The position numbers were made by a program, and so were the translations under genes. From NCBI RefSeq assembly GCF_003334815.1, contig NZ_QOWO01000012.1: DNA of 64,000 nucleotides, one strand, 5' to 3'. The DNA comes from Escherichia coli (GTDB taxonomy: Bacteria; Pseudomonadota; Gammaproteobacteria; Enterobacterales; Enterobacteriaceae). The stretch's first letter is position 1. The number at the start of each line of letters is the position of its first letter. This document shows positions 4,820 through 9,740 of the stretch, piece after piece. The notes under the pieces are model-generated. The model had not been told where the DNA came from, did not search any database, and was given only the letters and a program-made list of their open reading frames with translations.

Positions 4820-5523
4820 TACTCGTCCTTCACATTTCCCGGAATAATTGCGGTTTTCTCTTGTTCACGGCGATACCAGTAATAAGCCCCTTTCGAAATC
4901 ATTCGCAGTTGCAGTACCAGTCGCTCTTCTAATTGCCGACGTTGTTCGACGCCGACGTCCAACGCCTCGGCACCCGCACTGAAGACAATTGTCACCATTG
5001 CTTCGGCTTGCGCTTCAGTAAACGCACGCGGCATATGGTTTTCGAGTTCCAGATAGTCCGCAAGTTCCGCAATGAAGTGCTGAATTTCACGCGCAACGGC
5101 GGCACGAAACGCAGCGGAGGTGCCGGAGCGTTCCCGCAATAATAACCGGAAGGCGTTAGGATTATTACCGATGAACTCCATAAATGTGGAGACCGAGGTG
5201 CGGATCACACTCCCGCCTTTGGCGATACGCTGACGCGCCTGGCGCATGAGTTGGCGTAGCATTAAACCGCTCTCATCAACCATGGTCAGACCCAGTTCGT
5301 CTACGTCGCGGAAATGCCGATAAAAAGAGGTGGGAGCAATGCCCGCTTCACGCGCCACTTCACGCAAACTCAGGCTGGCGAAGCTGCGTTCAGCACTTAA
5401 TTGGCTAAATGCGGCTTCCACCAGCGAACGGCGGGTTTTTTCTTTTTGTTGCGCTCTTACGCCCATCACGATGTCTGAATCCTTGCCAAAAGTACTGCTG
5501 GCACTATACCAGAGAATGAACAT
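4819..5523 (-). CDS. fabR: TetR-family repressor of unsaturated fatty-acid synthesis
   Basis: ORF 4819..5562; TetR-type helix-turn-helix near the N-terminus; start chosen at MFILWYS (an upstream in-frame ATG at 5562 is also possible). Confidence 0.88.
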
Positions 5524-5799
5524 ACTGGATTGCTCCAGTATTGTGAATGAACGGTAACGCAATAAAACATATTTACTGCAATTCTTTGGCCGGTTCTTTT
5601 ACGTACAGCGGAAACCTGCCGCTTAAACGGAGAGTATCGTCGATAAAAATCCAATAAAACGTCAGGGCAAAAGTAAGAAACAGACAAAGCAAAGGCCGCT
5701 CAGGATATAGCCAGATAAATGACGGGGATCAATTGGCTTACCCGCGATAAAATGTTACCATTCTGTTGCTTTTATGTATAAGAACAGGTAAGCCCTACC

Positions 5800-7200
5800 A
5801 TGCCACATTCCTACGATTACGATGCCATAGTAATAGGTTCCGGCCCCGGCGGCGAAGGCGCTGCAATGGGCCTGGTTAAGCAAGGTGCGCGCGTCGCAGT
5901 TATCGAGCGTTATCAAAATGTTGGCGGCGGTTGCACCCACTGGGGCACCATCCCGTCGAAAGCTCTCCGTCACGCCGTCAGCCGCATTATAGAATTCAAT
6001 CAAAACCCACTTTACAGCGACCATTCCCGACTGCTCCGCTCTTCTTTTGCCGATATCCTTAACCATGCCGATAACGTGATTAATCAACAAACGCGCATGC
6101 GTCAGGGATTTTACGAACGTAATCACTGTGAAATATTGCAGGGAAACGCTCGCTTTGTTGACGAGCATACGTTGGCGCTGGATTGCCCGGACGGCAGCGT
6201 TGAAACACTAACCGCTGAAAAATTTGTTATTGCCTGCGGCTCTCGTCCATATCATCCAACAGATGTTGATTTCACCCATCCACGCATTTACGACAGCGAC
6301 TCAATTCTCAGCATGCACCACGAACCGCGCCATGTACTTATCTATGGTGCTGGAGTGATCGGCTGTGAATATGCGTCGATCTTCCGCGGTATGGATGTAA
6401 AAGTGGATCTGATCAACACCCGCGATCGCCTGCTGGCATTTCTCGATCAAGAGATGTCAGATTCTCTCTCCTATCACTTCTGGAACAGTGGCGTAGTGAT
6501 TCGTCACAACGAAGAGTACGAGAAGATCGAAGGCTGTGACGATGGTGTGATCATGCATCTGAAGTCGGGTAAAAAACTGAAAGCTGACTGCCTGCTCTAT
6601 GCCAACGGTCGCACCGGTAATACCGATTCGCTGGCGTTACAGAACATTGGGCTAGAAACTGACAGCCGCGGACAGCTGAAGGTCAACAGCATGTATCAGA
6701 CCGCACAGCCACACGTTTACGCGGTGGGCGACGTGATTGGTTATCCGAGCCTGGCGTCGGCGGCCTATGACCAGGGGCGCATTGCCGCGCAGGCGCTGGT
6801 AAAAGGCGAAGCCACCGCACATCTGATTGAAGATATCCCTACCGGTATTTACACCATCCCGGAAATCAGCTCTGTGGGCAAAACCGAACAGCAGCTGACC
6901 GCAATGAAAGTGCCATATGAAGTGGGCCGCGCCCAGTTTAAACATCTGGCACGCGCACAAATCGTCGGCATGAACGTGGGCACGCTGAAAATTTTGTTCC
7001 ATCGGGAAACAAAAGAGATTCTGGGTATTCACTGCTTTGGCGAGCGCGCTGCCGAAATTATTCATATCGGTCAGGCGATTATGGAACAGAAAGGTGGCGG
7101 CAACACTATTGAGTACTTCGTCAACACCACCTTTAACTACCCGACGATGGCGGAAGCCTATCGGGTAGCTGCGTTAAACGGTTTAAACCGCCTGTTTTAA
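5800..7200 (+). CDS. sthA: Soluble pyridine nucleotide transhydrogenase
   Basis: 466-aa ORF; FAD-binding GSGPGG motif and flavoprotein disulfide reductase family architecture. Confidence 0.95.
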
Positions 7201-8100
7201 AACTTTATCGAAATGGCCATCCATTCTTGCGCGGATGGCCTCTGCCAGCTGCTCATAGCGGCTGCGCAGCGGTGAGCCAGGACGATAAACCAGGCCAATA
7301 GTGCGGCGTGGTTCCGGCTTAATGCACGGCAGATAAACAACCCCATCGCGTTTGCGCTCCGGCGGCACAGCCAGCGCTGGCAGTAAAGTGATCCCGCTAC
7401 CTGCCGCCACCATGTTGCGCAGAGTTTCCAGGCTGGTCGCGCGGAAGTGTGTATCTTCATCCGCCCCGGCTTCAAAACAGAAACCCATTGCCTGATCGCG
7501 CAAACAGTGACCATCTTCCAGCATCAGCAGTTTTTCCCCTGCCAGATCGGCCATCGGTACGCATTCGCGGTTCGCCCACGGGTGATCTTCATAGATAGCC
7601 AGCAACATTGGCTCATCAAACAACGGCACTTCAATGAATGCTTCGCTCTCTTTCACCAGCGCGAGGATCACGCAATCGAGTTTGCCGCTGTCCAGTTGCG
7701 CCAGTAACTGGTGGGTCTGTGCTTCATGCAGATACATTTCCAGCTTTGGAAAGGTCTGGTGCAGCATAGGGATAATATGCGGTAGCAGGTACGGTCCAAC
7801 TGTGGGAATCAAACCAATGTGCAGCGGTCCGGACATCGTCTCGCCCTGCTGGCTTGCCATCTCTTTAAGGACTTTCACCTCACGCAGCACGGTACGCGCC
7901 TGATCCACCAGCAGCATTCCCGCCTGGGTGAACAACACTTTACGGCTGGTCCGCTCCAGCAACATCACGCCCAGCTCATCTTCCAGCTTACGAATTTGCC
8001 CGCTAAGCGTCGGCTGGCTAACGTGGCAGGAATCTGCCGCACGCCGAAAATGGCGGTGTTCAGCCAATGCCACCAGGTACTCAAGATCACGAATATTCAT
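7183..8100 (-). CDS. oxyR: LysR-family hydrogen peroxide-sensing regulator
   Basis: ORF 7183..8130; start trimmed to [18 protein letters not shown]; contains redox cysteines in the [12 protein letters not shown] region; 3' end overlaps sthA convergently. Confidence 0.95.
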
Positions 8101-8119
8101 TATCCATCCTCCATCGCCA

Positions 8120-8170
8120 CGATAGTTCATGGCGATAGGTAGAATAGCAATGAACGATTATCCCTATCAA
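8120..8170. promoter_or_regulatory. OxyR binding region (oxyR/oxyS divergent promoters)
   Basis: Repeated ATAG elements (8122, 8135, 8144) and CTAT (8165), spaced as in OxyR operators, between oxyR start and oxyS. Confidence 0.6.
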
Positions 8171-8195
8171 GCATTCTGACTGATAATTGCTCACA

Positions 8196-8304
8196 GAAAC
8201 GGAGCGGCACCTCTTTTAACCCTTGAAGTCACTGCCCGTTTCGAGAGTTTCTCAACTCGAATAACTAAAGCCAACGTGAACTTTTGCGGATCTCCAGGAT
8301 CCGC
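8196..8304 (+). ncRNA. oxyS: OxyS small regulatory RNA
   Basis: Sequence GAAACGGAGCGGCACCTCTTTTAACCCTTGAAGTCACTGCCCGTTTCGAGAGTTTCTCAACTCGAATAACTAAAGCCAACGTGAACTTTTGCGGATCTCCAGGATCCGC matches recalled OxyS; divergent from oxyR; ends in a hairpin plus T8. Confidence 0.9.
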
Positions 8305-8312
8305 TTTTTTTT
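8286..8312 (+). terminator. Intrinsic terminator of oxyS
   Basis: Stem GCGGATC/GATCCGC followed by TTTTTTTT. Confidence 0.8.
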
Positions 8313-8315
8313 GCC

Positions 8316-8343
8316 ATAAAAAAGCCCGGCGATAAGCCAGGCT
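8316..8343 (-). terminator. Intrinsic terminator of argH (argCBH operon)
   Basis: Minus strand reads GCCTGGCTTATCGCCGGGC then TTTTTTAT, 24 nt past the argH stop. Confidence 0.7.
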
Positions 8344-8366
8344 CAAATTTATACATATAAATGTTC

Positions 8367-9740
8367 TTACCCTAACCGAGCCTGCGCAAAAGCAATCGCC
8401 TGCGCCACCTGCTGCGGTGAGACGCCGCCTTTTGCCGCACGCTTGTCGAGGCACGATTGCAGCGACAGAATCGGATAGACATCTTCGTCAATCACCTGAC
8501 TGAATTTCTGCAACTCACTGAGCGGCAGATCTTCCAGCGGTTTGCCCTGACGAATGGCTTCCACCACCGCTTCACCAACAATATGGTGCGCCTCGCGGAA
8601 CGGTACGCCTTTCGCCACCAGATAATCCGCCAGTTCGGTGGCGTTGGCGTAACCCTGCTGAGCCGCTTCCTGGCAACGTGGACGTTTCACCTGAATGCCG
8701 TCCAGCACCAGCGCCGCCATATGCAGGCAGTCCAGCCAGGTATCGAGCGCGTCGAACAGACCTTCTTTGTCTTCCTGCATATCTTTGTTGTAAGCCAGCG
8801 GCAAACCTTTCAGCGTCATCATCATGCCGGTTAACGCCCCCTGCACCCGGCCGCATTTACCGCGAATCAGCTCCAGCGCATCCGGGTTTTTCTTCTGCGG
8901 CATTAATGATGAACCGGAAGTCACGCGGTCAGAAAGCTCCACAAACCCCGCTTCGCCGGTGTTAAAGAAAATCAGATCTTCAGCAAAACGCGACAGATGC
9001 ACCATGCCGATAGCGGCAGCAGAAAGCAGTTCCAACACATGGTCACGGTCAGAAACGCTGTCGAGACTGTTACGGGTCGCCGAAGCAAAGCCCAGCCAGC
9101 CTGCTAACTGTTCACGGTCGATTTCATAGGCCGTTCCCGCCAGCGCGCCACAGCCTAGCGGGCTGACATCCAGACGCTTAAGCGCATCCTGCAAACGGCT
9201 TTCATCACGCGCCAGCATCTCAACATAGGCCAGGCACCAGTGCGCGAACGTCACCGGCTGGGCGCGTTGCAGGTGAGTGTAACCTGGCATTACCGCGTCC
9301 TGATTGTTTTGTGCGGTTTCCACCAGCGCCGATTGCAGCTGCCGGTTAGCCGTCAGTAACTCGCTAACGGTATCTTTGCACCACAGTTTCAGGTCAGTCG
9401 CTACCTGATCATTACGGCTACGCCCGGTATGCAGCTTTTTGCCTAACTGGCCCACTTTGTCGATCAGTTTGCCTTCCACCCAGCTATGGATATCTTCGGC
9501 GTCGCTTTCAAGGATTTGTTGTGGCCTGGCGCGAACATCTTCCAGCAACACGTTCAGCGCCTCTTCCAGTTGCGCCTGCTCTTCTGCGGTTAACACGCCT
9601 ACCGTGACCAGGGCTTTGGACCAGGCCACAGAGCCAACAATATCCTGCTCCGCCAGACGGTAATCAAAGCGCAGTGAGTCGTTGAATTGTTTGAACCGTT
9701 GATCTGCTGCCTGGGTAAAACGCCCGCCCCAAAGTGCCAT
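8367..9740 (-). CDS. argH: Argininosuccinate lyase
   Basis: 457-aa ORF; fumarate-lyase signature [12 protein letters not shown]. Confidence 0.97.

Follow-up and report, generated by a model that had tools for sequence, protein, structure and literature searches.

The stretch of Escherichia coli chromosomal DNA considered here (64,000 nucleotides, referred to below as the window; all positions are counted from its first letter unless a genome version is named) contains a pair of convergent genes, sthA and oxyR, whose coding sequences meet tail to tail and share their final bases:

5800 to 7200, plus strand: coding sequence of sthA (udhA), specifying the Si-specific soluble NAD(P)+ transhydrogenase of 466 amino acids (open reading frame, NF003585 match, and RefSeq annotation).
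7183 to 8100, minus strand: coding sequence of oxyR, specifying the LysR-type H2O2 sensor of 305 amino acids (open reading frame, NF008361 match, and RefSeq annotation).
7183 to 7200, both strands: the tail-to-tail, codon-aligned overlap of 18 bp, TTAAACCGCCTGTTTTAA (sequence, open reading frames, and RefSeq).

The shared 18 bp read L-N-R-L-F-stop for sthA on the plus strand and L-K-Q-A-V-stop for oxyR on the minus strand, with a TTA leucine codon of either gene facing, as its reverse complement, the TAA stop codon of the other. A first-pass annotation, made from the sequence alone, had placed the last six codons of both genes on these same 18 bp; the sequence, the open reading frames, and RefSeq agree on this placement (the six codons being five sense codons plus the stop for each gene), and the RefSeq/PGAP annotation carries an identical sthA/oxyR overlap. 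SthA matches the NCBIfam equivalog profile NF003585 with 805.7 bits (residues 2-466 on profile positions 2-462 of 464), and OxyR matches the equivalog profile NF008361 with 632.9 bits (residues 1-305 of 305). Such full-length equivalog matches indicate that the C-termini of both proteins are real and do not represent run-on of an open reading frame. The locus thus has the makeup of a convergent overlapping gene pair, in that two bona fide coding sequences on opposite strands have 3' bases in common. At its other end, the mechanically derived oxyR open reading frame is longer than the annotated gene, with an in-frame upstream ATG at 8130 as compared with the annotated start at 8100. A 2.7-kb segment spanning the sthA/oxyR locus was found at 95% identity or more in all 5,426 of the 5,426 complete E. 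coli genomes. Separately, a BLAST comparison of ER1709 with the window revealed an indel of approximately 120 bp.

The overlap is not new: it is annotated, one paper remarks on it explicitly, and several genome-wide maps include it. Partipilo and colleagues (J Biol Chem 2022, PMC9460512) noted that udhA and oxyR overlap at their 3' ends, counting 12 nt as opposed to the 18 bp present in both annotation and sequence (the two stop codons were presumably omitted from their count). They also observed that the arrangement is absent in Azotobacter vinelandii and Pseudomonas fluorescens, where the genes are not adjacent, and speculated that the overlap might mean transcriptional regulation between udhA and oxyR. 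Their work and ours consider the same locus and the same idea of a transcriptional link, but theirs compares three organisms and contains no transcript ends. The pair also appears in the output of ExcludonFinder (NAR 2025, PMC12288877), as one of 165 convergent pairs, with transcripts overlapping in at least 50% of 58 MG1655 transcriptomes. In our survey of the literature, we found no paper that tests regulation within the sthA/oxyR pair specifically. What is added here amounts to modest refinements: the ancestral state of the overlap and its variability, an OxyR tail dictated by the antisense strand, and a hairpin that compensatory changes preserve although it lies within the coding sequence of another gene.

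To read the published maps at this locus, coordinates were converted between MG1655 genome positions (g) and window positions (w) as g = 4166590 - w for U00096.3, and as w = 4164613 - g2 for the p19 data, which are given on U00096.2. Placed on the window, the published data yield the following features:

7201 to 7245, plus strand: the sthA 3' UTR, antisense within oxyR codons 286-300, ending 45 nt past the stop codon.
7084 to 7182, minus strand: the oxyR 3' UTR of about 100 nt, antisense within sthA codons 429-461.
7135 to 7479, both strands: a p19-captured, RNase III-dependent dsRNA cluster, listed as "oxyR sthA, 3', Convergent" (Huang 2020, Table S1).
7451 to 7575, plus strand: a putative Rho-stopped zone of sthA-sense read-through inside oxyR, with a bicyclomycin peak at 7575 and a C-rich, G-poor segment at 7451-7550.
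7081, minus strand: an oxyR-sense bicyclomycin-sensitive position inside sthA (Adams 2021, supplementary file 2).

The strong primary 3' end of sthA (MG1655 4159345 on the minus strand, window 7245) was mapped by Term-seq and appears in at least two growth-condition tabs (Adams 2021, PMC7815308); the same end was recovered by an independent method (TRS 2023, PMC10687069). The primary 3' end of oxyR lies at 4159504-06 on the plus strand (window 7084-7086), with a 100-nt UTR listed (TRS 2023, PMC10687069). With ends at these positions, the two mature mRNAs have a complementary stretch of about 160 nt, and the 18-bp overlap falls midway. The first-pass annotation had reasoned that the two mRNAs would have complementary 3' ends, and that neither gene has room for an intrinsic terminator outside the coding sequence of its partner. 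The geometry does confine any element forming a 3' end to the partner's coding sequence, where both published ends lie; the expected complementarity is borne out by these ends, and the contrary outcome, in which both transcripts stop before the shared 18 bp, is contradicted by the same mapped positions. The antisense interaction that it had also envisaged is seen in vivo, in the form of the RNase III-dependent dsRNA cluster (U00096.2 4157134-4157478), which was detected in both exponential and stationary phase (Huang 2020, PMC7373196). The corresponding rows of that study (PMC7373196) cite Conway 2014 for a sthA terminator at 4157161 (window 7452) and for an operon overlap of 379 nt.

Published bicyclomycin data indicate that read-through increases upon Rho inhibition on both strands, as is expected of Rho-dependent terminators. 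The sthA-sense peak is at 4159015 on the minus strand (window 7575), with a Rho score of 5.8, and the oxyR-sense position is at 4159509 on the plus strand (window 7081), with a Rho score of 5.1 (Adams 2021 supplementary file 2, PMC7815308); these scores are calculated over 800-nt windows, so that they do not place the termination sites precisely. Base composition, taken as a possible signature of a rut site, shows a weak skew on the sthA-sense strand, where the C/G ratio reaches approximately 2 only at 7451-7550, the one hint of such a site in the sequence, and is 1.21 over 7201-7575, relative to a mean of 1.08 for the window; the ratio in the oxyR-sense 3' UTR is 1.08.

Folding of the RNA around the two mapped ends yields three hairpins, each of them written into the coding sequence of the partner gene because there is no intergenic DNA that could hold it:

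7215 to 7240, plus strand: the sthA 3'-end hairpin, GGCCATCC-N10-GGATGGCC, with an 8-bp stem and a variable loop, within oxyR codons 287-296.
7135 to 7170, minus strand: oxyR 3' UTR hairpin 1, with core arms CUACCCGA / UCGGGUAG, from the minimum-free-energy fold.
7090 to 7134, minus strand: oxyR 3' UTR hairpin 2, AAAGGUGGUG...CGCCACCUUU, from the fold, with CUGUUC leading up to the mapped 3' end.

At the RNA level, the sthA hairpin is GGCCAUCC-N10-GGAUGGCC, with 7215-7222 pairing with 7233-7240. The 50-nt stretch containing it has a predicted folding energy of -15.1 kcal/mol (z = -2.85), and the mapped end of sthA lies 5 nt beyond the stem, with a tail of UCUGC and no U tract (UCUGCCAG). The RNA of the oxyR 3' UTR (7188 to 7084 on the minus strand) folds into two hairpins at -36.9 kcal/mol (z = -4.15). 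Both sit inside sthA codons 431-457, and the mapped end of oxyR is located 4-6 nt beyond hairpin 2, with a tail of CUGUUC in E. coli and CUGCUC in most species.

A scan of representative genomes returned 80 Enterobacteriaceae species (relatives at 91% identity or more), 79 of which have both genes on one contig. The overlap measures 18 bp in 77 of these 79 loci, and is thus not a chance feature of one genome; in Enterobacter soli and Pluralibacter gergoviae (loci L011 and L075), the oxyR stop codon has become CAG and the overlap measures 27 bp. More distant loci were reached by way of more distant SthA proteins, with sampling within Enterobacterales. An 18-bp overlap is also found in Pantoea, Hafnia, Serratia, Edwardsiella, and Chimaeribacter, so that an overlap is kept in at least four families (Enterobacteriaceae, Erwiniaceae, Hafniaceae, and Yersiniaceae). 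The length is 27 bp in Erwinia and 9 bp in Musicola, as it is in Pectobacterium when the conserved frame is read. An apparent 43-bp overlap in Pectobacterium zantedeschiae was set aside, as oxyR is frameshifted in that assembly and the conserved frame gives 9 bp. Two Dickeya genomes have no overlap at all, with spacers of 49 bp and 116 bp separating the genes. In Dickeya dianthicola, 14 of the 18 positions of the ancestral 18-mer survive at the end of either gene, which shows that the junction was duplicated, and sthA has gained a canonical terminator consisting of a hairpin and a U tract. The distribution across these lineages indicates that the 18-bp overlap is ancestral in Enterobacterales, and at the same time that its length can change and that the overlap can be lost.

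Two properties of excludons, namely overlapping transcripts of neighboring genes (from published mapping) and RNase III-processed dsRNA (from the p19 cluster at 7135-7479), are found at this locus, and oxyR-sthA shares both with the convergent excludons for which Listeria provides the paradigm. The hallmark of an excludon, however, is mutually exclusive expression, whereas oxyR-sthA is known from transcript overlap and dsRNA, and the effects of rnc mutation are small: proteomics of rnc mutants gave ratios of 1.37-fold and 1.17-fold for SthA and of 1.26-fold and 0.67-fold for OxyR (PMC7373196). Overlapping convergent genes are also commonplace, given that two of the 10 annotated convergent pairs in the 64-kb window overlap. 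The second of these, frwD/yijO, shares the geometry of sthA/oxyR, with 14 bp in common (18988-19001); a third convergent pair, uspD/fpr, has its genes 4 bp apart, and both frwD/yijO and uspD/fpr are present in the ExcludonFinder list (PMC12288877).

If the locus did act as a functional excludon, the overlap would serve to couple the two genes negatively: on induction of sthA, its read-through RNA would pair with the last ~300 nt of the oxyR mRNA and OxyR would fall, with the reverse happening likewise, either because RNase III cuts the duplex or because the converging polymerases collide. Such an arrangement would be in keeping with the listing of oxyR-sthA among the 165 convergent excludons (again in at least 50% of the 58 MG1655 transcriptomes), with the presence of the dsRNA cluster in both growth phases, and with the retention of some overlap across Enterobacteriaceae, Erwiniaceae, Hafniaceae, and Yersiniaceae; the connection of H2O2 sensing to NADPH/NADH balance that it would make is a plausible one, suggested in PMC9460512 as well. 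We nevertheless consider it unlikely. The literature surveyed contains no demonstration of reciprocal expression, and SthA and OxyR proteins shift by no more than approximately 1.4-fold in rnc mutants, in a study whose authors found that RNase III cleavage and protein level were not generally related (PMC7373196). Furthermore, Dickeya has separated the genes and provided sthA with a canonical terminator, the length of the overlap ranges from 9 to 27 bp elsewhere, and the dominant mature end of sthA at 7245 spans only 45 nt of oxyR. The small proteomic changes in rnc mutants and the commonness of convergent overlap instead favor a tolerated compaction of the genome, with embedded and selected 3'-end structures, as the most likely account of the overlap. 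Any effect of antisense pairing is probably at most a small tuning of expression, as opposed to a dedicated switch; to a dedicated switch we would assign a small chance, at or slightly below that of the excludon just described. The persistence of the overlap in at least four families, together with the dsRNA, may leave room for a regulatory role that was missed by proteomics.

A separate issue is how the two transcripts acquire their ends. Both hairpins might be intrinsic, Rho-independent terminators that together constitute a split bidirectional terminator, in which case the transcripts would overlap only in the ~160 nt between their ends. The dominant, sharp Term-seq ends, which lie 5-6 nt past stable GC-rich stems on both strands, have the appearance expected from such terminators, and in E. 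coli the oxyR tail is partly U-rich around the end of the stem (UUUCUGUU). Other features of intrinsic termination, however, are missing at the junction. The stems are present, but a U tract is absent on both strands: the sthA stem runs directly into its tail (UCUGCCAG), and the oxyR tail takes the form CUGCUC in most species. A consensus scan for terminators and promoters over 5500-8500 returned none at the junction, its only strong terminators being those of oxyS and argH, and an Rfam search of 6800-8500 at E-values up to 1 matched only OxyS (RF00035, 8196-8305) and nothing at the junction. Nor do the structures amount to a bidirectional intrinsic terminator, as the hairpins are separate (7215-7240 and 7090-7134) and each is read through by the other transcript. 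Bicyclomycin-sensitive read-through, scored at 5.8 on one strand and 5.1 on the other, speaks against intrinsic termination as well, and on the sthA side the dsRNA (to 7479) and the Conway terminator (7452) both extend far past the sthA hairpin. We therefore judge termination at the hairpins themselves to be improbable.

Two known classes of 3' end provide points of comparison. Bidirectional intrinsic terminators between convergent genes were reportedly identified by SEnd-seq (Ju et al. 2019), and sthA/oxyR resembles them in being a pair of convergent genes with hairpins at its 3' ends. It differs in having, in place of one common hairpin between an A tract and a U tract, two hairpins with ends approximately 160 nt apart, each located beyond the other, without a U tract and with bicyclomycin-sensitive read-through. 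For Rho-dependent 3' ends, Dar and Sorek (2018) reportedly described trimming as far as a stem-loop that protects the RNA. The resemblance to ends of that class comprises a stable hairpin a few nucleotides before the end, the lack of a U tract, and bicyclomycin-sensitive read-through downstream; the difference is that the sthA/oxyR hairpins are embedded in the coding sequence of another gene, where they are doubly constrained and where residues of OxyR have been altered along with them.

We infer from the genome-wide tables that a route of Rho termination followed by trimming, modeled on that of Dar and Sorek, offers the most economical reading of the two ends. Transcription of each gene would continue past its own hairpin and into the partner gene, a step that fits the Conway terminator at 7452, the operon overlap of 379 nt, and the bicyclomycin peak at 7575. 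Rho would then halt polymerase on the untranslated RNA beyond the hairpin, and 3' exonucleases would degrade the RNA as far as the hairpin, leaving the mature mRNA protected by it.

The shared 18 bp belong to two proteins, and the changes observed among species suggest which of them is the more demanding. The C-terminal 15 residues of SthA are identical in every lineage examined and end in LNRLF. In OxyR, the residues immediately before the last five differ among lineages (HFDKV, YMGST, and VMAQQCNA, among others), and the protein ends in LKQAV wherever the 18-bp overlap occurs. Within Enterobacteriaceae, the changes inside the 18 bp are synonymous in SthA and alter OxyR (V305I, A304T, and Q303K/E), and the earlier oxyR stop codon of Musicola and Pectobacterium results from a synonymous change of sthA Leu465 (CTG to TTA). 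The invariance of SthA, taken together with the OxyR-altering changes, shows the tail of OxyR to be an antisense shadow of the SthA C-terminus; the 18 bp are held fixed mainly by the invariant LNRLF of SthA, with the LKQAV of OxyR tolerating substitutions. Although a tail that tolerates substitution, shortening, and extension might be taken as the sign of an annotation artefact, in which one of the proteins truly ends earlier and there is hence no coding overlap, this is almost certainly not so, as both proteins are followed by curated equivalog profiles through to the last position, the OxyR frame contains no earlier stop codon, the last 15 residues of SthA are invariant in all families examined, and the same gene ends recur in 77 of 79 species.

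A second layer of constraint is apparent in the hairpins. The stem of the sthA hairpin is able to pair in 97.6% of the alignment cells from 74 distinct sequences, while the loop varies freely. Compensatory double changes are found in three of the eight pairs, and none of 500 shuffles matched the observed number of doubly changed cells. One of the replacements, from A:U to G:C, occurs in 9-10 sequences and combines the OxyR substitution I289V with a synonymous change of Asp294; another, from G:C to A:U, occurs in two sequences and combines A288T with a synonymous change of Gly295; the third, from C:G to U:A, occurs in one sequence. These changes indicate that the sthA 3'-end hairpin is under selection and is kept by compensatory changes inside the oxyR coding sequence. 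A strand test based on G-U as against A-C combinations did not discriminate between the strands (97.6% versus 97.3% pairing); since the hairpin pairs equally well on either, sequence alone does not tell which transcript uses it.

The comparative evidence for the oxyR 3' UTR hairpins is of another kind. Of the cells of hairpin 1, 91-97% are able to pair in a set of 78 distinct sequences. A covariation test of the oxyR 3' UTR hairpins found no two-sided changes, with shuffles equaling the observed values. For hairpin 2, 99.6% of cells pair on the oxyR-sense strand versus 85.6% on the opposite strand, which means that all of its variation is wobble-compatible on the oxyR-sense strand. This wobble-compatible variation and strand asymmetry are supportive of hairpin 2 but not decisive, given that the fold was worked out on the E. 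coli sequence and that codon bias may contribute; the conservation of the oxyR hairpins could in part reflect codon bias in a well-conserved segment of the protein. Hairpin 2 has a weak predicted fold in both Dickeya genomes (-8.3 and -8.5 kcal/mol) and also in Musicola (-6.5 kcal/mol), where the overlap is 9 bp. The expectation that hairpin 2 would decay only where the genes separate is not borne out, as the Musicola fold is weak and its genes still overlap. The natural control that Dickeya might have offered is consequently confounded by phylogeny, and hairpin 2 is evidently not obligatory wherever the genes overlap.

Synonymous variation is reduced wherever the UTR of the partner gene lies on the other strand. 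Third-position entropy in sthA is 0.61 at 7084-7200 as compared with 1.03 elsewhere in the gene (p = 1e-6), and in oxyR it is 0.54 at 7201-7245 as compared with 0.95 elsewhere (p = 0.006); within the 18 bp the values are 0.04-0.26. No variation is seen at the four-fold degenerate sites of Ala288, Thr443, and Thr444, and very little at that of Gly295 (entropy 0.10).

Taken as a whole, the locus is likely to be what the preferred reading makes of it: an ancient and genuine overlap in which the 3'-end structures of each gene reside in the coding sequence of its partner, the ends arise through Rho and trimming, and the arrangement is tolerated as a form of compaction. A bolder proposal would treat the embedded ends and the overlap as a conserved post-transcriptional link from NAD(P)H balancing to peroxide sensing, in which, under strong transcription of sthA, its Rho-limited read-through across the last ~300 nt of oxyR, together with RNase III cleavage, would measurably lower OxyR. 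We hold this to be quite doubtful. Were it so, the state of the redox cofactors would set the gain of the OxyR response, and the OxyR-altering compensations would be a case in which the protein sequence of one gene is shaped by an RNA element of the gene next to it.

Engineering of this locus calls for caution. Deletions in oxyR, or cassettes inserted into it, remove the sthA 3'-end hairpin and the zone of Rho termination, and deletions within the last ~120 nt of sthA remove the structures of the oxyR 3' UTR; single-gene knockouts of sthA or oxyR may therefore disturb the partner gene. More generally, the locus provides a clear and well-sampled example of dual constraint, combining a protein tail dictated by the antisense strand with hairpins maintained in a foreign coding sequence. 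Should the antisense pairing turn out to be regulatory, it would connect peroxide sensing with NADPH/NADH balancing.

Two other convergent gene pairs in the window overlap or nearly meet. The genes yijO and frwD form its second convergent coding overlap, sharing 14 bp (18988-19001), and uspD and fpr converge across a gap of just 4 bp; the published list of convergent excludons in MG1655 contains both frwD/yijO and uspD/fpr (PMC12288877).

18150-19001, plus strand: yijO, convergent with frwD
ends at 18988, minus strand: frwD, convergent with yijO

In other genomes, two sthA-oxyR junctions have features of their own. The Dickeya dianthicola spacer is 116 bp long and AT-rich, carries several copies of a AAATCAATTGTTT-like motif, and has a tandem TTAAGCCGAC repeat adjoining the oxyR stop. 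The Pectobacterium zantedeschiae oxyR is frameshifted from approximately residue 255 on, so that it is a pseudogene unless the shift is an error of sequencing. At this locus the conserved oxyR frame terminates in ...YMENLSK followed by the stop, giving a 9-bp overlap with sthA.

L085:3908-4023: sthA-oxyR spacer, D. dianthicola
L087:3865-4809: frameshifted oxyR, P. zantedeschiae assembly

At the other end of oxyR, the mechanically called open reading frame begins at an upstream in-frame ATG, which adds window 8101-8130 (minus strand) and makes it 315 aa long; the family profile, from its position 1 on, fits the annotated start at 8100 (305 aa) instead. The OxyS small RNA is divergent from oxyR and has its canonical terminator at 8286-8304. 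In seven genera (Pantoea, Erwinia, Dickeya, Hafnia, Serratia, Edwardsiella, and Chimaeribacter), a gene of 243-244 aa fusing AhpC-TSA and Glutaredoxin domains is divergent from oxyR, and the equivalent position in E. coli holds oxyS followed directly by argH.

8196-8305, plus strand: OxyS small RNA (Rfam RF00035, 139.5 bits)
L083:4939-5670: peroxiredoxin-glutaredoxin fusion gene; equivalent position in L084-L086, L088-L090, and L094

Farther along, overlapping BLAST segments reveal an indel of approximately 120 bp distinguishing the window from E. coli ER1709 (window ~12894-13121), situated between ppc and argE in a locally repeated stretch.

Upstream of sthA, three E. coli genomes carry an IS481-family transposase between fabR and sthA, 18 bp from the sthA start, and the insertion probably alters the sthA promoter context.

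L002:692-1783: IS481-family transposase, E. coli IAL7255; also in genomes H2 and H3

In the window itself, the sthA 5' end coincides with a double-stranded RNA cluster captured by p19 (window ~5787-5990) and with a minus-strand antisense start site at approximately window 5820 (both from Huang 2020, Table S1, PMC7373196). Based on the cluster and this antisense start, the fabR 5' UTR apparently extends over the beginning of sthA; in that case sthA has antisense partners at both its 5' and 3' ends.
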